Positions 49,368 to 64,000 of a stretch of DNA of 64,000 nt are shown one piece after another. The stretch spans positions 32,001-96,000 of the forward strand of contig CAWDOD010000007.1 of assembly GCA_963803805.1 (NCBI GenBank). Direction: 5' to 3'. The notes under the pieces were generated by a model that made no database searches, was not told where the DNA came from, and worked only from the letters and a program-made list of their open reading frames with translations. Every line of letters begins with the position of its first letter. Positions within the stretch are counted from its first letter, which is position 1. The DNA comes from an uncultured cyanobacterium (lineage in GTDB: Bacteria > Cyanobacteriota > Cyanobacteriia > Cyanobacteriales > CAWCAG01). The position numbers were made by a program, and so were the translations under genes.

Positions 49368-50924
49368 ATGGCAAAATTGACTAGCAAGGCTGCTTTAATA
49401 CTGAGCGTATTAACACTCACTACTTGGAGAGGAGAAGCAACTCAAGCGGCTGAACCCAGCTTAGGAAGTTCTTTCACCCAGTGGTGTCTCCAGAAAGATA
49501 ATTTGTCAACTGGAGCAATTAGAACTGTAGATGTACTGTTAGAAGAAGCAGGGACTACTGATTGTGAATCTGCTAATAACCTGTTATCAAGCCGCACCCA
49601 ACTTGACCTCAGCGACTCCGACATTATAGATGTCACGCCTTTAGCAGGGTTCACAAACTTAGAGTACCTCAATCTCAGCGATAACCAAGTTACAGATGTC
49701 ACTCCTTTAATCAGACTCACGAATTTAGAGGTACTTGACCTTGAATCTAACAAAATCACGAATGTTACTCCAATAGCCAGACTCACGAATCTATCGGGAC
49801 TCGGCCTCTATGCCAATAAAATCAGAGATGTCACGCCTTTGGCTAAACTCACAAACCTAGAGGGGCTTTACCTTGGCAATAACAAAATCAAAGAAATAAG
49901 TTCTTTAGAACCGCTTACCAACCTGAAGATACTCAATCTCAGTTTCAATGAAGCTAAAGATATCAGTCCTATAGCAAAATTTACACAACTAGAGGAACTT
50001 TACCTTTACTCTAACCAAATCTCTGATATTAATTCTCTAACAAAACTTGCCAGTTTGAAAGTCCTCAACCTTGGCGAGAATCAGATCACAGATATCAGTT
50101 CTCTAGCAAAACTGACAAATCTAGACGAACTTGACCTCAGTTATACCCAAATCAAAGATTTCAGTTCTCTAGCAAAGCTTACATATTTAGAAAAACTTAG
50201 CCTCAACGGTAATCAAATCACGAATGTCAGTTTTCTAGCAAAACTGACAAATTTAGAGATGCTTAATATTGGGGACAACAAAATTATTGATTTTGCACCT
50301 CTAACTAAACTCACAAATCTAGAGTTTCTCAATCTTTATAGCAGCCAAACTACAAATCTTGCTCCTTTAGCAGGACTCACAAATCTTAAGAAGGTTATCC
50401 TTTGGGGCAGCGAAATTACTGATATCACTTTTTTAAGGGGACTTACCGATCTAGAGTATCTTGACCTCAGCTTTAATCAAATTGAGGATATCAGTATTCT
50501 GGCAGAACTGACAAATCTGAAAGAAGTTTACCTTCCAAGAAACAAAATCACTGATATTAATTCTTTGAGGGGACTTACTAATCTTGTGTCGCTTTCCCTT
50601 GGAGAACAGAAAATTACAGATGTTACCCCTTTGGCGAGACTCATAAATCTAGAAATACTTTCCCTCAACAATAATCAAATTAAAGATGTTACGCCTTTAG
50701 CAGGACTCATAAATCTAAAGACGCTTTTCCTCAACAATAATCAAATCGCAACTGTCAGTCCTCTCTCAGAATTAACTAATCTAGAAATACTTACCCTTCA
50801 CAGCAATCAAATTACAACTGTCAGCCCTCTATCAGGATTAACCAATCTAAATCGACTTGTCATTAGGGACAATCCCGTTACACAGCCAGTTTGTCCGATT
50901 AATAAACCTGTTTGCGTCTTTTAA
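49368..50924 (+). CDS. Secreted internalin-like leucine-rich-repeat protein
   Basis: Signal peptide, Cys cap (FTQWC...TDC), and about 19 repeats of 22 aa (LTNLE.L.LS.NQI.DV.PL). Confidence 0.93.
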   Translation: MAKLTSKAALILSVLTLTTWRGEATQAAEPSLGSSFTQWCLQKDNLSTGAIRTVDVLLEEAGTTDCESANNLLSSRTQLDLSDSDIIDVTPLAGFTNLEYLNLSDNQVTDVTPLIRLTNLEVLDLESNKITNVTPIARLTNLSGLGLYANKIRDVTPLAKLTNLEGLYLGNNKIKEISSLEPLTNLKILNLSFNEAKDISPIAKFTQLEELYLYSNQISDINSLTKLASLKVLNLGENQITDISSLAKLTNLDELDLSYTQIKDFSSLAKLTYLEKLSLNGNQITNVSFLAKLTNLEMLNIGDNKIIDFAPLTKLTNLEFLNLYSSQTTNLAPLAGLTNLKKVILWGSEITDITFLRGLTDLEYLDLSFNQIEDISILAELTNLKEVYLPRNKITDINSLRGLTNLVSLSLGEQKITDVTPLARLINLEILSLNNNQIKDVTPLAGLINLKTLFLNNNQIATVSPLSELTNLEILTLHSNQITTVSPLSGLTNLNRLVIRDNPVTQPVCPINKPVCVF

Positions 50925-50979: not shown

Positions 50980-51927
50980 ATGCAGCGAAAATACCTTTCC
51001 TATTTAGGAACATTTTTATTTAGTTCAGGGCTACTGGGTTTAGCCACTTGGACGATTAGCCGCGAACTCAAAAATTATAGCCATCAAGACATACTCCAAA
51101 GCTTCCAAGCCTTACCAAGCGATCGCCTGTTTGGGGCGGTAATTCTCACCATGCTTTGTTATGGAGTAATGACAGGATATGACACCCTAGCAATGCGTTA
51201 TATTCGTCACCCCTTACCTTACCGAAAAACTGCCTTTGCTGCTTTTACTAGCATTGCCATTAGTAATAATATTGGTTTTGCTCTTTTGAGTGGTGGTGCT
51301 ATTCGTTATCGCCTCTATCGCCCCTGGCAGCTATCAAAACTAGAAATTGCTCAAGTCATTGCTTTTGGCAATCTTAGCTTTTGGTTAGGAATGTTAACAG
51401 TGGGGGGAGTTTTATTTATTTTTGTACCTTTGGATGTGCCTCAATTACTAAATTTCCCCCTTGCTTCAATGGATTTATTGGGGGGAATTTGTCTTGCTGT
51501 GGTCACTGGCTACTTCATCTTTAGTATTTTAGCTCGGCATAAAACTTTTCATTGGCGAGGTTCGGTGTTTCGAGTTCCTTCTCTTGCCATTGCCATAACT
51601 CAAATTACTATTGCTACAGTTGATTGGGCTTTGGCTGCTGGAGTTCTTTATCTACTTTTAGATATTGCTTCAGTGTTATCTTACTCTACTTTTTTTGGCA
51701 TTTATTTACTAGCTCAATTAGCTAGAATTATTAGTAGTGTTCCTGCTGGATTGGGCATCTTAGAAACTGTGATGGTATTAATGTTAGCCCCCCAAGTACC
51801 TACAGACAAAGTTTTGGCAGCTTTGCTAGCTTATCGAGGTATTTACTATCTATGCCCTTTCGTCATCGCAAGTATTTTAGTTGGTTGTTACGAACTTCTC
51901 CGCCGTCACCGTAAAAGTAGGATGTAA
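50980..51927 (+). CDS. Lysylphosphatidylglycerol-synthase TM (MprF N-terminal / UPF0104 flippase-like) protein
   Basis: TGYDTLA, GGAIRYRLY, VPAGLGILE and LLAYRGIYY motifs; no synthase domain. Confidence 0.85.
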   Translation: MQRKYLSYLGTFLFSSGLLGLATWTISRELKNYSHQDILQSFQALPSDRLFGAVILTMLCYGVMTGYDTLAMRYIRHPLPYRKTAFAAFTSIAISNNIGFALLSGGAIRYRLYRPWQLSKLEIAQVIAFGNLSFWLGMLTVGGVLFIFVPLDVPQLLNFPLASMDLLGGICLAVVTGYFIFSILARHKTFHWRGSVFRVPSLAIAITQITIATVDWALAAGVLYLLLDIASVLSYSTFFGIYLLAQLARIISSVPAGLGILETVMVLMLAPQVPTDKVLAALLAYRGIYYLCPFVIASILVGCYELLRRHRKSRM

Positions 51928-52018: not shown

Positions 52019-54196
52019 TCATTGGGCCTTACTTCTGACCGACTTCGTACCGGGCCCTCCGCCTCTACCTCTATTAAGATCCCCCAACAAACTGCTAATA
52101 ATATCCACAGCTTCATCTCCCCTAGTCTCCAAAACTCCCTTCCGTGTACCTCTTCCTCTAGCAATAGAGCGCAACTTCAACAAAGCATCCTTCATCGCAA
52201 CTTCACTAAAAATCACTAACACCTCTGAAACCGTAGTTTCTTCAGCTACAAAAACAAAGCTATCCTTATCAGGGTCAGGAAGTAGCAGAGTTTCCTTTGC
52301 CCCAATTTTATTAGCTGTCTCTGCATACTCTTCATCCCGCAACTCCTGAAGCGAAGAAAATTCGTTAGGATAAAGTACAAATAACTCCCCACGAGGGTCA
52401 ATTAAAATTGCGCTAACAAAGAGTTCCTTATCCTCATTATTAACAATCTTCAATTGAAAGAACTCGTTGAGAGGTATAGAGTTGGTATCCCCGCTTCCAC
52501 GTTGCTGAGAAGAAACAGAACAATATTGAGCCTCTTTTGTACAACTGCCCCGCGCAGTAAATGCTTCTCCTAATATCTCTTTACCGCTTTCGATTTGCAA
52601 CGTTACTCCTACATCTAAGTGAGAAGATCGACCATTAATGGTTGTAGAAATTAGCCTAGCAGCGAGGAGAGATCTTAGCTTGCTGTTAAGACGTTTAATG
52701 GCTTCTTCTATTGTCTCTCCTGCCTTGCCAAAAGAATCGGGGACTACCTCTAAAGCCGGGGAAAATAAGCCGATGCTGCCTTCTGAAGGAACTTCCTTTG
52801 CCCTAACTTGATCGCTATAGCTTGGTGTCATGCGACTGAGAATATACTGCACATTCTCCGGGTAGGGTTCTGCTGCTGTTTGATAGGGGATTGCTTTGAG
52901 GCGTTTTAAGTTTGCAATTGCTTCCCCGGCCGTACTCGCATCTGCCCCTAATGAAGGGTCAAGACCAATTTTCAGCATAAACTCAGCAGGAATAGTCCGT
53001 GCAAACTCCTGTAATAAATCCCCTGGTTTAACATTACCTTCGAGGACTTTGTATCCTGCTTGCAAACCATTGCGAGAAGTTACTTCCACCTTGGCACTGG
53101 AAGAACTAACAAAAATTGCCCCCTCCCCACTAGCTTCTATGGCTTTGCTATCGACTCCTCCTAACCAAAGTTGGGGCTGATTACCTGGAGTGTTGATAAC
53201 TACTGCTTCTGTGGGGGCGACCTGAGATTCTAGTAGGTATACAGGCTGGTTTTGTAATGAAGCTGGTTGGGCTTCACTTTTGGCTATCTGATTTAAAGCC
53301 AGGAGAGCTAAATTACCATTAATCAAGTCAATAGTCTTATCTACATCTGTACTTTGTTGCCAAAGGGATTGAGTAAGTAGATAGGTAAACGCCCCAGCAT
53401 GAAACTCAGGGAAATTATAATCAGCAGCAAGTTGGTTGCGTCGTGCTGATGAAATCGCAACCCCTGTGGCTATACCTTTTTGCCTAAGTTCGGAAAATTC
53501 TGAGGAAGTTAACTTCAAATCTTTTAACAAGCGTTCCTGATATTCTCGCTCTTCGTCCCCAACTTGCTTACCTTCTCCATCTACAGCACGGATTTTAACG
53601 TTGCCCCTTGTCCCCCCTCCAGAATGACAACTATCTAAAACTACAGTTACATTTTCGGTTTTTTGCTTCAACGCATACATGAGAAGAAAGAGGGTGCGTC
53701 CGGTGATATCATTAACCACCTCCTCTTCTAAATCAGATGAGTCATCAGAGGGAACAAAAGTGCTGTTGCGGCGATATTCTGGGTCAGGAGATTCAGGATC
53801 AGCTACTTCCGAACCATGACCAGAAAAATGGAAAACCACCACATCTCCTGGTTTAGCTTGGGCGATTAAATGTTCCTTAAAAGCAGTTAGAATCCCCTGG
53901 CGAGTAGCCTGTTGATCTGTAATAGTCAGGATGTCCTTTGCTTGGAAGCCGAAGCGGTGCATTAAAAGATGTTTTTGTAGTTCTGTATCTTGGACACAAC
54001 CTAAGAGTTGACCAAAACGTTCTGTCTTAGGATAATTATTAATCCCCACCAATAGGGCAAGCTTACGGGGTGTATTCTGAGCTAAAACTTTACCATAACG
54101 AAGGCTTTGGCTTTGCAGTTCAAACTTGCTTAAGCCCAGAGTAGCTAATGCAGAACCAGCAAATTGTAAAAAGTGACGGCGCTTAATCTTTGTCAT
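52019..54196 (-). CDS. Tat-exported caspase-family (C14) peptidase with C-terminal DUF4384-like region
   Basis: KRRHFLQ Tat motif, ALLVGINNY, and HFSGHG / DSCHSG catalytic dyad. The true C-terminus may be frameshifted and end at 51982. Confidence 0.88.
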   Translation of the reverse strand: MTKIKRRHFLQFAGSALATLGLSKFELQSQSLRYGKVLAQNTPRKLALLVGINNYPKTERFGQLLGCVQDTELQKHLLMHRFGFQAKDILTITDQQATRQGILTAFKEHLIAQAKPGDVVVFHFSGHGSEVADPESPDPEYRRNSTFVPSDDSSDLEEEVVNDITGRTLFLLMYALKQKTENVTVVLDSCHSGGGTRGNVKIRAVDGEGKQVGDEEREYQERLLKDLKLTSSEFSELRQKGIATGVAISSARRNQLAADYNFPEFHAGAFTYLLTQSLWQQSTDVDKTIDLINGNLALLALNQIAKSEAQPASLQNQPVYLLESQVAPTEAVVINTPGNQPQLWLGGVDSKAIEASGEGAIFVSSSSAKVEVTSRNGLQAGYKVLEGNVKPGDLLQEFARTIPAEFMLKIGLDPSLGADASTAGEAIANLKRLKAIPYQTAAEPYPENVQYILSRMTPSYSDQVRAKEVPSEGSIGLFSPALEVVPDSFGKAGETIEEAIKRLNSKLRSLLAARLISTTINGRSSHLDVGVTLQIESGKEILGEAFTARGSCTKEAQYCSVSSQQRGSGDTNSIPLNEFFQLKIVNNEDKELFVSAILIDPRGELFVLYPNEFSSLQELRDEEYAETANKIGAKETLLLPDPDKDSFVFVAEETTVSEVLVIFSEVAMKDALLKLRSIARGRGTRKGVLETRGDEAVDIISSLLGDLNRGRGGGPGTKSVRSKAQ

Positions 54197-54297
54197 ATTA
54201 TTTTCTCCTTTAACTAGATAAATAACCTAATCTATATTTCTTAATTTCTCATCAAGTTGTACTGATTTTTTCATTTATAAAAATATATCGTTAAATT

Positions 54298-54466
54298 GGC
54301 GTTGCTGAATGAGTAATGATTTAGGTGATCGCAGGAACAGTAGTTCATCAATTTCTGTAATTTTAGGTATCTCTTCTTCTTCAGATATATCTGGTAGTTC
54401 CACTCCCGCTTCCTCAATCGAGTTCATGATTGTCGTATGGTGAATTTCTGTAACTCGTTCAATTCC
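54298..54466 (-). mobile_element. Internally deleted IS1-family remnant
   Basis: Minus strand 54466-54341 encodes GIERVTEIHHTTIMNSIEEAGVELPDISEEEEIPKITEIDEL, recognised as the cyanobacterial IS1 transposase HTH/DDE junction. It is joined directly to an end ...ATTCAGCAACGCC. Confidence 0.75.
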
Positions 54467-54563
54467 TCATTTTCAAAACTACGACGCTTTTTCATGTCTC
54501 ATTTGAAAATGCTATATGCTTCAGCATCATTTATAAAATTTTTGGTATGGGAGCAACTCAATG

Positions 54564-54725
54564 GGGAGCATCTCAAATTGGTAAATATAGGCTCTGGCCG
54601 TTGACTTGATGAACAAAAAGTTCAAAGAAGCAGCAATAAATGTATTCTTAAAGCTAAGAGCTAATAGCTAAGAGCTAATAGCTAACCTCACAGATCAACT
54701 GTTTCTGCAAAATTGAGATGCTCCC
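54564..54725. mobile_element. 162-bp MITE
   Basis: Perfect 13-bp terminal inverted repeats GGGAGCATCTCAA / TTGAGATGCTCCC, flanked by an 8-bp direct repeat ACTCAATG (54556-54563 and 54726-54733). Confidence 0.9.
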
Positions 54726-55245
54726 ACTCAATGTTCGTTTATTGTTTGTTTTTTAACTTATACAGCTTAATCCATACAGGTTATCAAAATAAATTTTGTA
54801 TCAATTTTGGCAATTGATACAAAATCTTCAAACCTGCCTCTTTTAGGTAATTTTACTCTCGATAATGCCAAGAAAATACTTTGAGCAAGGAATAAACTGA
54901 AAAATTTATTCCTTGCGACAACATTAACGCACACATCAGCTTTTTAGTATTAATTTAGCGTTCTTGAGAGAAAAACAACTTTTGAGAAACCGACTAAAAA
55001 GTCTGAAATACTTTGCAAACGCATTGCGTATTTATAGATCATTTCTCTTTATTGAGTGCTAGACTTTGCTCCCTTTTAAGTTGCTTTAGGGAAGGGGAAA
55101 AGTCATGTTTGTATCTACAGCAAAATTTTTGGTAATTGATATTATCACACAGTCTTATTTAGTCGGTAACGCCATAAATCAAATCCTATCCTTTTCAAAC
55201 CTAAAACACTCAGCATTTACGCAAACGTATTCTTGGTAAGTAAAT

Positions 55246-57696
55246 ATGGCACGTCAAACCTCTAAAAATACAACCAAACTATATTGGCTTTTCCTCAGTA
55301 CTGCTTTGATAGTCAGTGGCAACTTCCGGTTAATTGCTCCTGTTATAGCTGGTACTCAAGCTGGTCAAGAGATTAAAAACACTGCGACGGCAACTTATCT
55401 AGATCCTACAAATCCTCTCAATATTATTAATGCAACTTCTGACACTATCACCATAACCGTAGCGGAGGTTTCAGGTGTTACCGTCACTAATGCTGGTGTT
55501 ACCGATAGTAATGGTGGCAAAATTGCACGGAATGATGAGATTTTTTATGATTACACCGTTACCAACGTAGGTAATGACCCAACTCAATTGTTTATCCCCG
55601 ACGAAGATAATATCAATATCAACGGCCCTGGTACTATCACCTCTGTAGATGCAGACTTAGATGGGGATGGCACATTTGAAACACAAGTTCCTACTGGCGG
55701 ACTAACTACCACTACTCTTGTTGCTGCTGACGATTCAATTCAAGTAAGGGTAACAGTTACTGTTGATAGCAATGCTAACTCTGGAGAAACTATTGCTGTA
55801 CAACTTGGTAACACTCCAACTGATGATGGTACAAGCCAGCCTTTAGTAGATGACGGTGATAGCGACTTACAAACTATTGATGATAGTACTCCTACTCCAG
55901 TTAACGGTGAAAGTGAGACTAGCATCACTCAAGAAGCTACAGTGGAAGCTTCGCCGACAGCGTTAGCGAAAGTCCTCAAGACCCGAACTAACCACGATAA
56001 AGGAGATCCACTCGACATCACAGACGATGTTCTTAGCTATGCTCTTAGTTTACAGGTTGAATCTAGCGATCCCACAGGTACAGGGATCAATCCTGCACCT
56101 CTAGCTGGTATAGATATTAACGTTGATGGTATCGTTGAGGCTCATATCCTGATCTCTGATGCTATTCCTACAGGTACAGAATTAGAAGGTACAGCCGTTG
56201 CACCCAGTGGTTGGATTGCCGTCTATACCGATAGTCCCATTGCGACTGCTGCTGTAAATGTTAACTGGAGAACTAATCCTGCTGATTTAACTGGCCCTGT
56301 AACCCGTGTTGGTTTCATAAATGATACAGTAGCTACTGTTGCCACAGGTCAAACCGTTAGCGGTTTTAATCTCAATTTAGGGGTTATCGCCACGGCAACT
56401 TCACCTTTAAATGTAGCAAACATTGCCCAGGTATTTGGTGCTACTGATGGAGTTCCTGATATCATCATTTATGATGAATCTGGTGACCAAAATCCCAATA
56501 ACTACAACCCTGTTGATGGTACTGTAGATGGTTTCGATGCCCTTACTGACACAGGTTTACTTAATGCTTTAGATTTAACAGCCTTAACTGCTAGCGTCGG
56601 TATTGATACCAACAATAATAACACCGGTGATGGCCCTGGTGGTGAAGCTAGCTTTATTGAAATTGCTTTACCTGCTGTAGGGGATATCTTAAATGGACCC
56701 AAAGATGTTGCTGATGCTATCGGTCCAACGGATAGTAACGATGACTTTACTAACAAATCCACACCGATTATTAAATACACCAAACCTGGTTCTACTATTG
56801 ATCCTGATCCAGTAGACTTTATAAACACCTTTGTTAATACAAGTGGTCAGTCTGCTGATGTCACCTTAGAACCAGTTGCCCCCGCTAATCCCCTTGATCT
56901 ACCGGATCAAACTGTAGTTACCATCACCGCAGTAGATATTCTTACACCCACCAACCCGATTAAATCTGCTACTTACCGGTATGATCAAGCAACAGGAACC
57001 TTTACCCTCACCAATGGTACACCAATTGTCTTTAACAACCCTCTACCTCTAGTGGGTGGTCCTGGTAAAGGCGTACTTCCTAATGTTCCTGTTGCCTACA
57101 ACGTGGAGATCGACTTACCCAGTGATACACCTCTTTCTACCGATACCCTTGAAGATTATACTGGGGATACAGAATTTGGTTTCCCTGTGGGAATCGTCGC
57201 CAAACTAGACACTGACGGTAATGGCACTTTTGAAGCAGAAAATACCACCATCGACAGGGCTTACACCGGCTACCTCAAACTGGAGAAAACCTTCCAAATT
57301 CTCCAAGGAGATGGCCCTACAGTTAGTGATCCTACTGCTCCTCCTGCACCGGGTAACATCATTGAGTACACCGTCAAATACAGTAATATTTCCACTCCTG
57401 GCGGCGGTATAGGCAACATTGGCTTAAATGCAACCACGGTAATTATTACTGAAGATGGTGCTGATGCGGCTATTGAAAATAACTGGGCATTAGATAACGA
57501 TAGCAACGGTGAAATTGATACTAGCCATGTTGTGGGACAAGCAAGTGATAACAACGGCGGTATCGTTACGTACTTTGACCTTGGTGGTAGTGTTCTAGAT
57601 ACAGTAGGTGTAGATATTACAAGATATCTAGACACAATCTCTAATGTTGCCCCTGGTGCATCGGGTGAGTTTACCTTCCAACGCAAAGTCAATTAA
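55246..57696 (+). CDS. Secreted multi-Ig / DUF11-like surface protein, candidate major fibre subunit
   Basis: Signal peptide; N-terminal GQEIKNTATATY; YTVTNVGND, ISDAIPTG and PGNIIEYTVKYSN motifs; C-terminal PGASGEFTFQRKVN; T/D/G-rich. Confidence 0.8.
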   Translation: MARQTSKNTTKLYWLFLSTALIVSGNFRLIAPVIAGTQAGQEIKNTATATYLDPTNPLNIINATSDTITITVAEVSGVTVTNAGVTDSNGGKIARNDEIFYDYTVTNVGNDPTQLFIPDEDNININGPGTITSVDADLDGDGTFETQVPTGGLTTTTLVAADDSIQVRVTVTVDSNANSGETIAVQLGNTPTDDGTSQPLVDDGDSDLQTIDDSTPTPVNGESETSITQEATVEASPTALAKVLKTRTNHDKGDPLDITDDVLSYALSLQVESSDPTGTGINPAPLAGIDINVDGIVEAHILISDAIPTGTELEGTAVAPSGWIAVYTDSPIATAAVNVNWRTNPADLTGPVTRVGFINDTVATVATGQTVSGFNLNLGVIATATSPLNVANIAQVFGATDGVPDIIIYDESGDQNPNNYNPVDGTVDGFDALTDTGLLNALDLTALTASVGIDTNNNNTGDGPGGEASFIEIALPAVGDILNGPKDVADAIGPTDSNDDFTNKSTPIIKYTKPGSTIDPDPVDFINTFVNTSGQSADVTLEPVAPANPLDLPDQTVVTITAVDILTPTNPIKSATYRYDQATGTFTLTNGTPIVFNNPLPLVGGPGKGVLPNVPVAYNVEIDLPSDTPLSTDTLEDYTGDTEFGFPVGIVAKLDTDGNGTFEAENTTIDRAYTGYLKLEKTFQILQGDGPTVSDPTAPPAPGNIIEYTVKYSNISTPGGGIGNIGLNATTVIITEDGADAAIENNWALDNDSNGEIDTSHVVGQASDNNGGIVTYFDLGGSVLDTVGVDITRYLDTISNVAPGASGEFTFQRKVN

Positions 57697-57769
57697 GGCA
57701 TTTTGCTACACCAATTATTGTCGCCTACTTCCCTTCAAAGTACTAATTTGTAACTCACAGAGGTTTATT

Positions 57770-58327
57770 ATGAAACGTTTCTTCCTTAGTCTCAGCGCGA
57801 TCGCCCTTGTTGCTACAGTTCCAGTTTTAGCTAGTTCTCCAGTACAAGCTAGTATCCGTGAAGCAGGAACTAAAATTGCCCAATTTCTTGCTCGTCCTGA
57901 AGTTAAGTTAAACTTAGCCGCAGCTAAGCGTATGGTGAAAGTTGATGATTCTGGCAATGAACAGGTTAACTGGGAAGATATTGCCCAAGAAGCAACGGTT
58001 GTACCGGGGGATGTCCTCCGCTACACAGTCACTGGTGAAAATGCTGGTGATGCCACAGCCAACAACTTTGTGATCACCCAGCCTATTCCTACGCAAACCA
58101 TGTATGTTTTAGATTCAGCAGCTAGTAGTAATAGTGCCACTGTCACCTACAGCATTGATAACGGTACAACCTTCAGTGCAGAACCAACTATTCAAGTAGA
58201 TGATAACGGTACATTGATCGAGCAACCTGCACCGCCTGAGTCTTATACTCACGTTCGTTGGAGCTTTGAGCAGTCTCTAGTGGCTCAAGAAGAGGTGCAA
58301 GCTTCCTACGAAGTAACCATTAAGTAG
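57770..58327 (+). CDS. Small secreted DUF11-like single-domain protein
   Basis: ATG 57770 after an AGAGG RBS; signal peptide; PGDVLRYTVTGENAG, YSIDNG and YTHVRW motifs. Confidence 0.82.
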   Translation: MKRFFLSLSAIALVATVPVLASSPVQASIREAGTKIAQFLARPEVKLNLAAAKRMVKVDDSGNEQVNWEDIAQEATVVPGDVLRYTVTGENAGDATANNFVITQPIPTQTMYVLDSAASSNSATVTYSIDNGTTFSAEPTIQVDDNGTLIEQPAPPESYTHVRWSFEQSLVAQEEVQASYEVTIK

Positions 58328-58463
58328 CAATAGAGAATCACATCAAATCCAGTGTGAATGGGGAACGGGGAACAGGTAATGGGCAATAGTTTTATCCCAA
58401 CTCCCCATCTCCCCATCTCCCCTTCTCCCTAAGCGCTTTAACTAGTTTGAAACTTACTTACCC

Positions 58464-59963
58464 ATGGAAAGAAACAAGCTGCTATTTTCAATTTCCTCTC
58501 AGCACAAGCTATCTACTTTCCTGAATCTTGTAGCAATCTTAGGCTTAGGAACAAGTTTAATAGGCATTGATGCCACCTTAGCTCAAGGTAACATTTCTTT
58601 CCAAAACCAAGCTACCTACACTTATCAAAACTCGGCTAACCAGACTCAGTTACAAGGAGTTTCTAATCAGATTGAAGTTAACACCCTCGACTCATCTTTA
58701 GTTGATCCTTTCGGGCAGGTTTTGGGTTGTAATGGTGAACCCTTGTTAGATTACACAGGCTTTTCCGTTAGCTTATATACTCCTGCTGCCAACGCAACCA
58801 CTGGGACAGAACTAGATCAGTTAGTTCCTTTAACGGCAACAGAGTTACCGGATGTAGCAGGTAATGACCTTACTCAAGGGGTAGAACCTAACATCAGCAA
58901 TGTTAATCCTTTTTCCCTTAGCAATACTACTCAAGGCAAGTATAGCTTCCTCTTAGATAGTAGTAAAGGACAACTGATACCAGGAACAAGCTATATTTTC
59001 GTAGTTAATCCCCCTACTAATTCTAACTATAGTCAGCGACGGGTCAAGATAGAAATACTAGCAAATAATAATGGGAAAGTCAGTTATAGAGCCAGTTCCC
59101 TAGATGGCCAACCTATTACCTCTCAAGGCCAAACTCAAATTGATGACACCCTGGTTAATATCTCTGAAGCCAACAAACAAGGTGTTATCCTAGCTGCTTT
59201 GCAACCTCAATTAGTACTGTGCAACCCTAATCAAATTGAAATTATTAAAACAGGGGATCGCGCTGTTGCTGGACCTGGAGATACGGTACTCTATCGTCTT
59301 ACAGTGAGAAGCAAATCTGATGCGACTCTCAACGCAATTAAGATTAACGATTATTTACCCCCTGGTTTTAAATTTTTACCTAATTCTGTGCGGGGTGAAT
59401 TTCAAGGGCAACCCCTTTCTATCAATGCTACTAACCATGGTAATGAGGTTGACTTTGAAATTGCAGCAAATCTCTCTCCCCAAGGTGTAATCAACCTTGT
59501 TTATGCGGCTCAACTTACTCCTGATTCTTTAAGGGGTTCCGGAGAAAATTCAGCAGTTGTGAATGCTAAGCGTCTTGACAACTCTTTCCAGGTTAAAAAT
59601 GGCCCGGTTATCCATCGTTTGCAAATCAATCCTGGCATTCTTTCTAGTTGCGGCACTTTGCTCGGTCGTGTCTTTGAAGACCATAACTTTGATGGTGAAC
59701 AACAGCCTGGTGAACCTGGCATCCCTAATGCAGTAATTGTGCTTGAGGATGGCAACCGTATCACTACAGATACTAACGGCTTATTTTCCGTGGCTTCGGT
59801 ACTTCCTGGCTATCACACAGGAACTCTGGATCTTACTAGTGTACCTGATTATACTATTGCTCCCAATCACTATTTCCGCGAACGCAATAGCCTCTCACGC
59901 TTAGTTAATCTGGCTCCTGGTGGCATGGTTCGCATGAATTTTGCTGTTACTAAAACAAATTAG
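58464..59963 (+). CDS. Secreted DUF11 plus SdrD B-like domain protein
   Basis: Signal peptide; FQNQATYTY; IIKTGD..GPGDTVLY..DYLPPG..GENSA; GRVFEDHNFDGEQQPGEPGIPNA. Confidence 0.82.
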   Translation: MERNKLLFSISSQHKLSTFLNLVAILGLGTSLIGIDATLAQGNISFQNQATYTYQNSANQTQLQGVSNQIEVNTLDSSLVDPFGQVLGCNGEPLLDYTGFSVSLYTPAANATTGTELDQLVPLTATELPDVAGNDLTQGVEPNISNVNPFSLSNTTQGKYSFLLDSSKGQLIPGTSYIFVVNPPTNSNYSQRRVKIEILANNNGKVSYRASSLDGQPITSQGQTQIDDTLVNISEANKQGVILAALQPQLVLCNPNQIEIIKTGDRAVAGPGDTVLYRLTVRSKSDATLNAIKINDYLPPGFKFLPNSVRGEFQGQPLSINATNHGNEVDFEIAANLSPQGVINLVYAAQLTPDSLRGSGENSAVVNAKRLDNSFQVKNGPVIHRLQINPGILSSCGTLLGRVFEDHNFDGEQQPGEPGIPNAVIVLEDGNRITTDTNGLFSVASVLPGYHTGTLDLTSVPDYTIAPNHYFRERNSLSRLVNLAPGGMVRMNFAVTKTN

Positions 59964-60033
59964 GCAAAAGTCTATAGGCAATAAGCAAAAGTAATTACCT
60001 ATTTAAAATTATTTACCTTGAGGGGAAAGAGTT

Positions 60034-63000
60034 ATGCTCTACTCTGATGTATTAAAGACAAGTAAGGGGAAAAATTTAGTTGTACTGTCGGCAATACTGA
60101 TAGGAAGTGTTAACTCACTTTGCGCCCCTCAAATAGCCCAAGGACAGGAATATGTAGAAATTATTCCTGAAACAAAGACAGCAACTCAGTTTGTAGAATC
60201 AGAAACAATAACGTCAGAAACTGTTTCCAACCCAATAGATGAGACAAAGGAAATCGACCTTCCTAATAACAATGCTTCTGAAAAGACTACATCAGCAGTC
60301 AGCATCCTTTCTCCTACAGTTAACAGCATTTTAGATCAACCGGCCGTCACAGTAGTGGTTCAGTATCCTAGGGATGCTGAAATAGAACTAAGAGTTAATG
60401 GACAACCAGTAGATCCTAAACTAATCGGTCGCACAGAAACTAACTCTGCTACGCAATTAATTACCCAGACGTGGTATGCTGTGCCTCTCCAGGCAGGAAC
60501 TAACAGTCTCAGTGCCAACTTATTAGGTCAGCCAGAAACCTTAACTACCACTAGTTTACAAGTAAGAGGACAGCCAAGTGAACTAATGGTCGCCACTAGG
60601 GAAACAAGTATAGATGCTGATGCCCGCTCTACAGCGATAGTGCAAGGTCAATTACAAGACGATAATGGTAACTTAGCTAATTGGGATGGTACTGTCACCC
60701 TAAGTACCAGTGCTGGAGAGTTTGTAGAACCAGACCAAGACTTACAACAACCCGGTTTTCAAGTCAAAGTCACAGATGGTAAATTCCGCACTATCTTACG
60801 CTCAACTTTAGAAGCCCAAACTGTCACTATTCGCGCTAACACCAGAGAGTTAGAAGCCTATACTCAACTACAATTTAAAACTGCATTGCGTCCTAGCTTA
60901 GTTTCTGGAGTTGTTAACATCCGTTTGGGAGCTGGTGGTACAGATTTCTACGATAGTTTCCAAGACTTCCTACCCTTAGATGAGGATGATGATTTTGTCT
61001 TAGATTTTAGTAGCGCTGTCTTTGCTACTTTTCCCATCGGTGAATGGCTATTCACCGGGGCTTATAACAATCAACGCCCCCTTAACCTTGATTGCAATTG
61101 TGACAATCGTCTCTTTCGCAATTATCAAGCCTCAGAAAACCAGTATCCTATCTACGGTGATGATTCTACTTCGGAAATTCTCGCCCCTTCTATAGATAGT
61201 CTCTATTTGCGTCTAGAACGCTCCTCTCCTGTGGTAGGAGCCGCGCCAGATTATGTCATGTGGGGAGACTATAACACCTCAGAGTTTGCAAACCCTTCCC
61301 AATTTTTCACCGCAACAACTCGCCAACTCCACGGCTTTAAAGGCAATTATAATTTAGGCAATCTCCAAGTTAGTGGCTTCTATGCCAACAACACTGAAGG
61401 TTTCCAAAGAGACATTCTCAACCCCGACGGTACTAGCGGCATCTATTTTCTCTCCCAAAGATTGCTAGTTCCTGGTAGTGAGGATGTCTTTATTGAATTA
61501 GAAGAATTAACCCGCCCTGGAACAGTTCTGCAACGAGAACGATTAAGCCGGGGTGCAGATTACGAGATTGATTATGATCGAGGAACGTTGAATTTCCGTG
61601 AACCGCTGTTGCGTACTGATATCGATGCAGAGGGGAATATTTTAGTACGCCGACTAGTGGTTAGTTATCAGTTTGAAGATGGCGGAGAAGATACTAAACT
61701 TTATGGCGGTAGACTGCGCTATCATCTTTCCCGGAATTTAAACCAGGAAAGCTGGTTGGGCGCTACCTATCTTAAGGAGGAACAGGGTGTGCGGGACTTT
61801 GAACTGTACGGTGCAGATGTTTTGCTTTCTCTAGGAGAAAAGGGACGTTTTACCGGTGAATATGCCCATTCTCGCCATAATTCTCCAGAGTTAGGTGCTA
61901 CTGCTGGTTCGGCTTATCGTTTACTTCTAGAAGGGGAAGTAAGTACAGGAATTGCTGGCCGGGCTACTATCAATCCACTGATAATGGTTTTGCTAACCAA
62001 GCAACGGCAAGTTTTGTTCCTGGACAAACTCGTTACGGTGCAGAGTTGCAAGCCCGCCTTTCCCCAAATACTCAATTGAGGGCCAAATATGACCAGGAAA
62101 GTAATCAAGGTAATAACCAGCAAATTCTCACTCCCATCGGTAATGTGCTAGAAGGGTACACCTTAGAAGGTAGTTTAGATAGCTTTCAATCCCAAACTGA
62201 GGTAAATAATTCCCTCACCACCATTTCCCTGGGAGTGCAACAAAAAATTTCTACTGCTACTTTAGATTTTGATTGGATTTATCGCCAACGGGAAGACCAA
62301 ATTAATCCTAATCTAAATAGTAATTCCCAACAGTTGCGATCGCGATTAAGCCTACCCTTAACAGATAATCTTACTTTCCGAGCGCTCAATCAATTAACCT
62401 TAAGTGAACAGACTGATGCTGTTTACGGCGATCGCACTGCTGTAGAGTTAGATTGGCAATTTCTTCCTGGTGTTAATCTCCTATTAGGACAAAATTGGTA
62501 TACGAAAGGGACGCTTGCTGGTAGTTCCATTACTAGTTTGAGTTTGCAGGGTGATTATAATTTTAGTCCTAATACTCGCTTAACAGGGCGCTACAGCCTT
62601 TTAGGGGGTGAGAATGACTGGACGGGACACGGGGCAATAGGATTACAGCATGACTGGCAACTTACCCCTGGTTTAAAGCTTAATCTGGCCTACGAACGGA
62701 TTTTTGGTAACTTTGGCAGCAATGTTATTGGCACAGGAATTAATCAACAATCCCTGACTACAGGTAGCAATAGTTCTGTTTTAGGAGTCACAGAGGGCAA
62801 TAGCTACAGTGTGGGTTTAGACTATGCCAGCGATCCTAACTTTCAATTCTCAGCTAACTGGCAACATCGTTCCTCATCCCAAGGCAGCAACACAGTTATT
62901 TCTGCTTCTGCCCTTGGTAAAATTACCCCCAGTTTATCAGCTTTGTTAGATTTCCATCACGCTAGTTCTACTAGTCCGGCTCTGAGTGGCTTAGGAAGTT

Positions 63001-63527
63001 CGACAGATTTAAAGCTGGGTCTAGCTTTCCGCGATCCCCACAGTGATGAATTTAACGCTTTGCTTAAGTACGAATATCGTCGCAACCCTGCCACCATTCC
63101 TGATACTATTTTATTCGGCAGTGGTACAGGATCTCAAGAACATCTTTTCTCCGCTGAAGCGATTTATGCTCCTAATTGGCAGTGGGAATTTTATGGTAAG
63201 TATGCTTTCCGTACTAGCACTACCTATTTAGCGAATGATTTTGTTGCTAACTCTATAGTTTCCCTAGCACAGCTAAGGGCTACTTATCGCCTTGGTTATA
63301 GTTGGGATTTAGTAGGAGAGGCACGCTGGATCACTCAACCCACAGCCGGCTACAGTGAAACTGGCTTTCTTCTGGAAACGGGTTACTATCTAACCTCTAA
63401 TTTACGCTTGGCAGCAGGTTACTCTTTAGGGGATATTAGTGATCGAGATTTTAGTGGTTCTCGTTCTGCTGGTGGCCCTTATGTGAATCTTACTCTGAAA
63501 TTCGATGATCTTTTCTTTGGGAATTAA
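60034..63527 (+). CDS. Large outer-membrane beta-barrel protein with N-terminal Ig-like domains, split by a frameshift at about 61964
   Basis: ORFs 60034-62079 and 62046-63527 join with one added base to read AGRAYYQSTDNGFANQATASFVPGQTRYGAELQARL. YPIYGDDS and DYEIDYDRG motifs; many amphipathic beta strands up to the C-terminus. Confidence 0.75.
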
Positions 63528-63768
63528 GCATTGGACATAAATTACAATGTCTTTTGAAACATACAACATCAAGATAGTAGCCTATCCTTCTTGAGCATTG
63601 ACATTTAACACTAACAAAAAATCAAAAATATACACAGGAGAATCTAAACTTTCTCAAAGAGAAGGTAACTAATATTTAGTTTGGGAGGTAAAATGCTGGT
63701 TATCTCTCAAAACCAAAAATTAGGTCAATGTCTGCTTAGTATGACCTCAAATTCTCTGAGATTAATTA

Positions 63769-64000
63769 ATGAGAAGCCACCAGCAGAGCCGCAAATTCAG
63801 TTTTCAACCATTGAAGCTCTCAGCAACCTTATCAAAAAGGCTGCATCAGAGCTTATTCGTGATCCCTGCAATCATTACTAGTACCAGCTTTTATTCCCCT
63901 CTAGTTAGCGCCCAGTCTATTATTAGGGAAGCAAACAGTACAGGAACGATAGTTAACCAACAAGGTGATATTTATCAGATTGAGGGTGGAACTCAAGCAG
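63769..64000 (+). CDS. Filamentous-haemagglutinin (TPS) N-terminal domain protein, partial
   Basis: Stop-free frame from ATG 63769 to the window end: signal-like region, then VSA-QSIIREANSTGTIVNQQGDIYQIEGGTQA. Confidence 0.75.
   Translation, partial: MRSHQQSRKFSFQPLKLSATLSKRLHQSLFVIPAIITSTSFYSPLVSAQSIIREANSTGTIVNQQGDIYQIEGGTQA

Follow-up and report, generated by a model that had tools for sequence, protein, structure and literature searches.

How does a cyanobacterium place large adhesins on its surface? To our knowledge, cyanobacteria and many other diderms without type IX secretion have no known route that puts large, isopeptide-stabilised immunoglobulin-like (Ig) adhesins there. The question is raised by a locus in an uncultured member of the Cyanobacteriales. 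The window, which is the whole stretch of 64,000 nucleotides (nt) that was analysed (contig CAWDOD010000007.1, assembly GCA_963803805.1), carries four consecutive genes on one strand, g1 to g4, which encode three secreted Ig-fold proteins and an outer-membrane β-barrel. An earlier reading made from the letters alone (the sequence-only reading) had proposed the locus as a candidate non-canonical pilus or fibre assembly system. In it g1 would supply the major subunit, g2 a chaperone or cap, g3 a base adaptor and g4 an outer-membrane platform for assembly or anchoring. We think it probable, though well short of assured, that the locus encodes instead a split plug-and-barrel, autotransporter-like platform displaying isopeptide-stabilised adhesins. 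This answer draws on synteny, gene fusion, co-occurrence, folds and the predicted docking of g3 with g4, all of which were computed directly.

The four genes form a conserved unit, as the sequence-only reading had supposed. With one genome taken per species, 168 stretches encode a relative. The best 80 loci were kept and typed by tblastn with the window proteins (at least 50 bits), and 12 of these 80 are too short upstream to judge. Among the 68 informative loci, 44 have g1-g2-g3-g4 in the shared order and on the same strand (type A), 22 have only g4 and a short g3 of about 305 residues (type B), and 2 show other arrangements. The short g3 of type B comprises an N-terminal strand motif, a DUF11 domain and an SdrD_B domain. 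A g3-like gene lies directly 5′ of g4 in 77/80 loci; in the remaining 3, fewer than 700 nt of upstream sequence are available. In L034, L040 and L047 the two genes overlap at the g3 stop and the g4 start. What look in some loci like additional genes, either between g2 and g3 or between g3 and g4, proved to be longer versions of g3 or g4.

Co-occurrence follows the same pattern. The barrel is present in 44 of the 301 genomes of a phylum sample (33 of 134 genera). DUF7925, a domain of g1, is present in 32 of the 301, and comparison of the two lists of genomes shows that all 32 also have the barrel. Where the places of both are listed, they are on the same contig, a few kb apart. The four components recur in another class of the window's phylum, which has a g2-like protein of 154 residues (hhalign 99.1%, E 1e-18), a g1-like protein of 1110 residues that matches in its N-terminal 170 residues only (97%, E 7e-11), and a 2744-residue fused g3-SLH-g4 protein (L087), together with a DUF6923/DUF11 protein. 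The genome of the window itself holds a second, intact cluster, of type B, on another contig (G000:C2:1246000-1265900, L084).

A structural model supports the view of the sequence-only reading that g4 is an outer-membrane β-barrel platform, and makes the barrel a very large one. The modelling was done with AlphaFold2 (AF2) on P0003, the closest full-length homologue (64% identity across the region aligned with the N-terminal piece of g4), using an alignment of 70 sequences. The model has a predicted local distance difference test score (pLDDT) of 74 and a predicted template modelling score (pTM) of 0.66. It contains two Ig domains at about residues 45–240, followed by roughly 38–39 long β-strands between residues 247 and 1107. 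A short-stranded insert of about 75 residues (414–490 in P0003) comes after roughly the seventh strand and holds the densest invariant residues of the g4 alignment. In alignments with small porins, the residues matched come from both ends of the barrel region (242–1108), as expected if the first and last strands adjoin in one closed barrel, and a single closed barrel is what the model suggests. The largest solved single-chain barrel is that of SprA, with 36 strands (10.64898/2026.03.07.710327, as far as the accessible part of that source goes). Three 38-stranded barrels are predicted in Deinococcus radiodurans and are described as unstudied in the accessible part of another source (PMC9388160).

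The domain matches of g4 are weak. Pfam finds Invasin_D3/Big and GH2_C5 Ig domains in the N-terminal piece and OMP_b-brl in the C-terminal piece. The Ig domains of the P0003 model resemble those of invasin, intimin and GH2 proteins (VIA-align Z 12–14.7), and a search of the PDB with the g4 profile returned GH2 Ig domains only. With the whole g4 model, Foldseek and VIA-align gave generic barrel matches with low template modelling (TM) scores or high root-mean-square deviation (rmsd). No single family is prominent among them, which does not make the fold a new one. In Pfam and NCBIfam the window proteins match none of the usher, TonB-receptor, autotransporter, secretin and POTRA families. For the TonB-receptor families the search covered the pieces from the window (E ≤ 0.01) and the full-length homologues P0241, P0243 and P0299 (E ≤ 0.001).

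These searches bear directly on the name that databases give to the family. At E ≤ 0.001, 406 of 8000 candidate proteins scored match the N-terminal piece of g4. The relatives listed are nearly all cyanobacterial proteins of 1100–1192 residues, named 'TonB-dependent receptor', 'hypothetical' or 'Ig-like/invasin domain'. If the first of these names, an NCBI label common among the homologues, were right, g4 would be a TonB-dependent receptor and its neighbours unrelated surface proteins. Some TonB-dependent transporters are indeed among the generic barrel matches of Foldseek and VIA-align. However, the plug and barrel family of these receptors has no match in the g4 pieces or in P0241, P0243 and P0299, the model has about 38 strands against 22, and Ig domains stand in place of an N-terminal plug. 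Nor do the strict linkage to g3 and the fusion to DUF11 passengers, described next, fit a nutrient receptor. We regard this explanation as scarcely credible. The labels 'TonB-dependent receptor', 'OmpA family' and 'hypothetical' are at least partly wrong for the g4 family, in which they are widespread, and the first is probably a systematic mis-annotation.

Outside the cyanobacteria, g3-like and g4-like sequences are joined in one polypeptide. The g4 profile was searched against 1.84 billion representatives (clusters at 50% identity) and matched 3654 of them at E ≤ 1e-3, and 1457 at E ≤ 1e-30. Many of the matching proteins are 1900–2500 residues long, with the homology in their C-terminal 1100 residues. 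Six of the nine long homologues scanned have N-terminal DUF11 domains, in up to five copies, before the Big-plus-barrel part. Several of the six also have DUF7507 or DUF7619 in that place, and five have SdrD_B and/or CarboxypepD_reg-like domains. An OmpA domain is found in P0344, P0305, P0243 (C-terminal) and also P0456, P0293 has three SLH domains, and the passenger of P0375 has cadherin-like and Big_9 arrays. The link to g3 is direct: residues 257–495 of g3 align to residues 681–916 of P0312 (30% identity, E 1e-28) and to residues 687–923 of P0344 (E 3e-21), and these stretches directly precede the g4-like parts, which start at residues 942 and 1033, respectively. The fused proteins come from Thermodesulfobacteriota, Deltaproteobacteria, Nitrospirae, Oligosphaeraceae, Thalassotalea, Massilia, Gallionella and others, under the source names 'DUF11 domain-containing', 'OmpA family' or 'TIGR01451 repeat protein'. 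Passenger and barrel share one polypeptide in the relatives only; the window has them in separate genes. Seeing that the two parts are fused elsewhere, the cyanobacterial genes would be the split form of an autotransporter-like giant adhesin, and the best fit is that the platform derives from, or gave rise to, such an adhesin.

A fusion link to g1 was also considered. The passenger of P0457 has a DUF7925-like stretch, but its score of 24.2 bits falls short of the Pfam cut-off (26.5) and a BLASTP search with g1 was empty, so it is not used. A search of the ESM Atlas with g3 returned only DUF11 clusters of its own kind.

The g3 protein consists of the N-terminal motif, a prealbumin-like middle, a DUF11 domain at residues 258–356 (33 bits in Pfam, cut-off 24.6) and a very conserved SdrD_B/CnaB-like C-terminus at about residues 391–497, in which the SdrD_B match itself (residues 402–451) is below threshold. 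The C-terminal domain was submitted to complex prediction with the barrel. Residues 393–504 of g3 and residues 285–1158 of the barrel were taken from the Limnofasciculus orthologues (L001), each chain with a 69-row alignment. The interaction prediction score from aligned errors (ipSAE) was 0.84, 0.85 and 0.83, and the best of three controls reached 0.00. The mark applied to this score is reached by 116/157 solved complexes and by 2/215 mismatched pairs, figures that are only approximate here, since the alignments were our own. At least 84% of the contacts are common to the runs (253–262 contacts, partner pLDDT at least 84).

The predicted contacts involve alternate residues of the first barrel strands (290–359) and of the last eight or so (997–1156). 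They include the barrel loop 368–388, which is disordered in the monomer model and pairs with g3 residues 436–441 at an expected error of 0.8–0.9 Å. As no similar complex has been solved, memory is an unlikely source of this result. The prediction suggests that the C-terminal domain of g3 may sit as a plug in the barrel lumen, beside the seam. The role of base adaptor given to g3 in the sequence-only reading agrees with this docking, with the adjacency to g4 and with the fusions in other phyla.

The comparison with type Va autotransporters follows from the fused relatives. Both have an adhesin-like passenger at the N-terminus and an outer-membrane barrel at the C-terminus of a single chain, and a passenger segment is predicted inside the barrel. 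The autotransporter barrel has 12 strands, and g4, with about 38, is about three times larger. The lumen of g4 is predicted to hold a folded CnaB-like domain and not a helix. Plug and barrel are separated by Ig, SLH or OmpA domains, and the cyanobacterial genes are split. The family of the 12-strand autotransporter barrel is absent from the Pfam matches of the g4 pieces and of the scanned homologues. A second likeness is to LptD–LptE and MtrB–MtrA, where a separate protein likewise goes with a large barrel encoded by a neighbouring gene and is predicted here to lie inside it; LptD and MtrB are among the structural matches of g4. The LptD and MtrB barrels have 26 strands, and g4 is much larger. 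Neither is related to g4 in sequence, their function in lipid or electron transfer is a different one, and the partner here is an Ig/CnaB protein, not a lipoprotein or a cytochrome.

The positions of the genes are given in Table 1. The sequence-only reading was right in the coordinates and sizes of g1, g2 and g3, provided that g2 is counted from the Met that opens a typical signal peptide; the mechanical list of open reading frames (ORFs) begins g2 at 57644, where it overlaps g1. All four proteins have a basic and then hydrophobic N-terminus, judged by eye on the translations without a signal-peptide predictor, which fits the signal peptides that had been claimed. The calls of Ig, DUF11, SdrD-B and barrel domains agree with Pfam and NCBIfam.

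Table 1. Coordinates of the g1–g4 locus and its 5′ spacer in the window
Feature	Position	Strand	Description
Spacer 5′ of g1	54197-55245		AT-rich, about 1 kb, GC content 0.34-0.35; presumed promoter region
g1	55246-57696	+	ORF; 816 residues, secreted multi-Ig protein
g2	57767-58327	+	186 residues, secreted; single DUF11 (CLIPPER-like) Ig domain
g3	58464-59963	+	ORF; 499 residues, secreted
g4, N-terminal piece	60034-61963	+	Signal peptide, two Big/invasin-like Ig domains and first part of barrel, including the highly conserved insert
g4, gap	61963/61964	+	One base short; splits g4
g4, C-terminal piece	61964-63527	+	Remaining barrel, in another frame; β-signal-like 'LTLKF' strand at the end

The g4 gene is split in the window into two ORFs in different frames, 60034–62079 (681 residues) and 62046–63527 (493 residues). 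The tail of the first, up to the stop at 62079, consists of out-of-frame residues, and the other frame continues as '...YYQSTDNGFANQATASFVPGQTRYGAELQARL'. A profile search of the genome puts the frame junction at 61962–61965. The halves of homologous genes share a frame and are separated by 81 nt; in the window the distance is 80 nt. A single ORF of 1071–1565 residues encodes g4 in 74/80 related loci, five others leave the contig, and L056 is also broken. The contigs of a public run (X1) contain 92% of the sampled words of the region. One of them, 959 nt long, covers 61107–62064 at a word depth of 7.3 and differs from the window only by an additional C after 61963. The inserted C gives '...GIAGRAYYQS...', which matches P0003. 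Because this base restores the frame, g4 is probably intact, with 3495 nt and 1164 residues, and the likeliest explanation of its split is an error in the consensus or strain variation. The protein of about 1160 residues in the sequence-only reading is thus not one ORF of the window, the frameshift having been read through, but its length is probably that of the whole protein. Run X1 may be the window's own source, in which case it amounts to a second assembly and not to independent biology. Between 57884 and 62199 the X1 contigs differ from the window by 11 further single bases across g2–g4, so X1 holds a slightly different strain or consensus.

The protein encoded by g1 is a string of β-domains. 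Its DUF7925 domain at residues 240–420, of the CnaA type, scores 210.8 bits against a cut-off of 26.5. Another domain, at residues 73–235, precedes it, and the later β-domains end in a DUF11-like domain with an invariant K681. The AF2 model of g1 is all-β (pLDDT 83.2, pTM 0.50). Foldseek ranks the Ig domains of PrgB and the C123 region of AgI/II high. In VIA-align, residues 240–475 match BcpA, the CLIPPER domain 9ifr, PitA, SpaD and Mfa5 moderately (Z 9.2–10.4), and residues 73–235 match TTHA1873 to a similar, moderate degree (Z 10.5). Over its folds, g1 resembles BcpA, SpaD, PitA, 9ifr and AgI/II C123 at Z 8–10.5. According to the accessible part of one source, DUF7925 (PF25546), which was defined on the Nostoc protein Q8YS00, DUF11 (renamed CLIPPER, PF01345) and SdrD_B are CnaA-like or CnaB-like isopeptide families, predicted or shown (PMC12617251).

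The residues for such bonds are well conserved. In g1, the Lys-Asp-Asn triad K245/D305/N392 is kept in 35/42 sequences, and in the remaining 7/42 Lys and Asp are lost together, as expected of a functional unit. In g3, whose profile matches the solved CLIPPER domain 9ifr (E 1e-4), the triad K262/D296/N362 is invariant in 69/69 sequences. Judged by these residues, g1 and g3 are best read as isopeptide-stabilised Ig-domain proteins. The SdrD_B-like domain of g3 has an invariant R402 in its first strand, at what we take to be the position of the isopeptide Lys in CnaB domains. With Arg at that position, this domain probably has no isopeptide bond.

The single domain of g2 is matched by DUF11 in Pfam (28 bits, cut-off 24.6) and by TIGR01451 (34.7 bits). 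K54 is kept in 37/44 and D82 in 40/44 of its relatives, but no conserved C-terminal Asn is seen in the 44 sequences, and the g2 triad is therefore doubtful. Profiles of g1 or g2 returned nothing useful from the PDB. A motif resembling 'GT-x-I-x-N-x-A-x-x-x-Y-x-D ... S-N-x-V' follows directly after the signal peptide in g1, g3, the short g3 and the fused relatives.

Worked out more fully than in the sequence-only reading itself, a polymerised pilus or fibre would have g1 as its repeating major subunit, g2 as the chaperone or cap, g3 as the base and g4 as an usher-like pore, with the subunits joined by donor strands or intermolecular isopeptides. The usher fold has a barrel of 24 strands, a plug between strands 6 and 7, and periplasmic domains at both the N- and C-termini. 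In the wide structural search the FimD usher (6e14_D) was the top barrel match to g4 (Z 13.3, 365 residues aligned, rmsd 13.9), and the translocation domains of FimD and PapC gave Z 12.0–12.3 (PapC 2vqi, Z 12.0). The rmsd is poor, however, and the ushers do not stand above DcaP, MtrB, porins, SlpA and LptD, whose scores are similar. The conserved insert of g4 comes early in the barrel, at a position that we take to resemble that of the usher plug, and a donor strand could be seen in the N-terminal motif shared by g1, g3, the short g3 and the fused relatives. Chaperone–usher pili are likewise encoded by an operon that combines secreted Ig-fold proteins with a big barrel. Yet g4 has about 38 strands where ushers have 24 and lacks C-terminal usher domains, and the subunits would be large and multi-domain; g1 in particular is unlike a one-domain pilin. 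The fused relatives are single polypeptides and not polymers.

The genome (5.3 Mb, 97% complete) was searched for the families of the known assembly machines. Usher (PF00577) and the PapD-like chaperone (PF00345) had no match at E ≤ 0.001 for the usher and none for the chaperone, both with positive controls in E. coli, and the chaperone is likewise absent from the four proteins. Sortase (PF04203) had no match in the genome either, with positive controls in three Gram-positive genomes. This extends to the whole genome the lack of PapD, PapC and sortase signatures first seen in the locus; for type IV pilin signatures, also named as lacking there, no separate search was made. The middle domain of g1 does resemble the domains of sortase pilins, and g1 and g3 share with sortase pilins and fibrillar adhesins (BcpA, SpaD, RrgB, AgI/II) the CnaA-type domains with conserved Lys-Asp-Asn. 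In those systems the anchor is the cell wall, and here it would be an outer-membrane barrel; the translations of g1–g3 end without an LPXTG motif or hydrophobic tail. The Synechocystis genes slr1667, slr1668 and slr0019 are of the PapD/FimD kind, as described in the accessible part of a preprint (bioRxiv 10.1101/130278), and belong to a different system.

The roles proposed for g1 and g2 find no support in these comparisons. Nothing shows polymerisation of g1, whose fold is that of a multi-domain fibrillar adhesin, and g2 is a single DUF11-type Ig domain without likeness to PapD. Since g3 and g4 make one polypeptide in other bacteria, a split autotransporter-like adhesin is likelier than a pilus machine, and we hold the polymerised fibre to be unlikely.

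The domains next to the barrel in relatives raise another explanation, that of an envelope tether. The barrel and its Ig partners (g3, perhaps g1 and g2) would then be periplasmic and would link the outer membrane to peptidoglycan, in the manner of SlpA/OmpM. Three SLH domains (P0293 and the 2744-residue protein of L087) or an OmpA domain (the four relatives named above) stand beside the barrel. A gene for a β-helix/Big_6/OmpA protein lies 3′ of g4 in 19/22 type-B and 17/44 type-A loci (positions checked for 13 of the 17). Deinococcus SlpA is among the Foldseek barrel matches, at a low TM score (0.18–0.20), and the contacts in the docking prediction include the beginning of the first strand and the end of the last, where the periplasmic rim would be. 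With SlpA/OmpM the system shares a very large single-chain barrel and, in some g4 relatives, SLH. But SlpA is trimeric and has 30 strands, and the window proteins lack SLH and coiled coil. Pfam finds no SLH or OmpA domain in the four proteins, and no β-helix/Big_6/OmpA gene follows g4 in the window, where TPS-domain and CHAT-DUF11 genes are found instead. The cadherin-like and Big_9 arrays of P0375 are typical of extracellular adhesins, and isopeptide domains occur mainly in the stalks of surface adhesins, according to the accessible part of PMC12617251. We judge the tether rather improbable, if less so than the pilus. A wall anchor and a surface adhesin are compatible on one platform, so the data for a tether do not exclude the split plug-and-barrel platform.

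In the split plug-and-barrel platform that we prefer, g4 would be the outer-membrane barrel, for which the model gives about 38 strands, and the two Ig domains in front of it would probably be on the periplasmic side. Its obligate partner would be g3, with the conserved CnaB-like C-terminal domain lying inside the barrel next to the seam and pairing strand-to-strand with an in-folded barrel loop, and with the DUF11 domain and N-terminal part forming a stalk. The isopeptide-stabilised Ig chain of g1 and the single Ig domain of g2 would be partners found only with the platform, which may export them or present them on the cell as an adhesin or a short fibre. In many other diderms, the g3-like and g4-like parts make up one chain of about 2000 residues, with a DUF11 'passenger' at the N-terminus, then the barrel and, in many cases, an OmpA or SLH domain as cell-wall anchor. 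From all this we infer that the system acts as an adhesin exposed on the surface, with g1 and g2 attached to it and the barrel as the route of export.

Several results weigh on the other side. As given, the window sequence has a broken g4. The strand count is a secondary-structure read-out of a single AF2 model of pTM 0.66. The predicted complex is one of orthologues from another genus, with the barrel cut from its Ig domains. Conservation is only weakly enriched at the g4 interface (39/85 against 276/789 positions at ≥90% identity, p = 0.057), and no enrichment is seen among the g3 interface residues. Finally, the SLH and OmpA domains of relatives and the β-helix/OmpA neighbours are periplasmic wall-binding modules, which fit a tether equally well. 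These modules argue that at least the segment adjacent to the barrel is periplasmic; the cadherin-like passengers and the isopeptide domains argue that the distal parts are surface-exposed. Both placements would suit a chain whose exit is the barrel and whose anchor lies in the wall beneath it.

The surroundings of the cluster are less constant. In the spacer 5′ of g1, a short tandem repeat with 'agctaagagctaat' units occupies 54640–54690, and the small ORFs are unremarkable. Rfam gave nothing at E ≤ 0.1 across 54000–64000, and promoter-like and terminator-like sites are no more frequent than in shuffled sequence. Upstream lie genes for a leucine-rich-repeat protein of 518 residues (49368–50924, + strand), an LPG_synthase_TM membrane protein (50980–51927, + strand) and a caspase-like (Peptidase_C14) protein with DUF4384 (52019–54196, − strand), and among the loci examined none of the three is kept beside the cluster. 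Immediately 3′ of the cluster and in the same direction, in the region 63769–64000 and past the end of the window (L085 370-5699 = G000:C7:95769-101098), there are genes for an 874-residue protein with TPS and DUF4347 domains and for a CHAT-domain protein of 893 residues with a DUF11 domain. A comparable TPS and CHAT pair is found 5′ of the type-B barrel clusters in L045, L064, L066 and L067, and this neighbourhood may thus recur around barrel clusters.

The second cluster of this genome (L084) has an intact barrel gene of 1221 residues and a short g3 of 318. Its downstream β-helix/Big_6/OmpA gene seems broken (426 and 168 residues), and about 3.5 kb with few ORFs is followed by a DUF6923/DUF11 gene; insertion or decay could explain the broken gene and the ORF-poor stretch. 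Spacer parts of the system also differ in length between loci. The g4 homologue of Calothrix parasitica (L034 7811-13498) has 1895 residues, with an N-terminal extension of about 13 tandem copies of a 25-residue repeat, 'NGNYLLALEPFLN.QKP.EFPISST', and the g3 of Coleofasciculus (L003) has 812 residues, with a long insert rich in alanine, serine and glutamine.

The literature that was searched yielded no paper on this cluster or family and no characterised member of it, though papers naming the genes by locus tag alone may have been missed. For DUF7925 and Q8YS00, PMC12617251 was the only match, and the top matches for DUF11 with autotransporter or usher draw no connection between them. Two further hits, PMC13297417 (a 'DUF11' signal peptide in PCC 11901) and PMC10272220 (DUF1194), are irrelevant to the cluster as far as their accessible text goes. 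To the extent that the sources are accessible, what is already catalogued is the domains (PMC12617251) and, in a single mention, 38-stranded barrels (PMC9388160).

The cluster ties isopeptide-stabilised adhesins to a dedicated giant barrel, a link that is genetic and, as far as the prediction goes, physical as well. No characterised family of outer-membrane secretion or assembly includes this barrel, and its own family is large and spread over several phyla. The locus probably encodes a barrel-anchored surface adhesin of the plug-and-barrel type, and the chance is fair that it represents a new kind of outer-membrane display or secretion system. A bolder version can be offered only tentatively. 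It holds that an unrecognised display and secretion system is widespread in diderms, with a single-chain barrel that exceeds every solved one in size, at about 38 strands, and has as its plug a CnaB-type domain from the passenger or partner; that its channel would be wide enough for folded, isopeptide-locked Ig domains; and that in cyanobacteria a g3-g2-g1 surface fibre may be made without chaperone, usher, sortase or pilin. If the proposed platform is real, its barrel would be the largest single-chain barrel yet, and the cluster would be a testable candidate for a new route of outer-membrane anchoring or export. It would also give a handle on adhesion, aggregation and biofilm formation in cyanobacteria.

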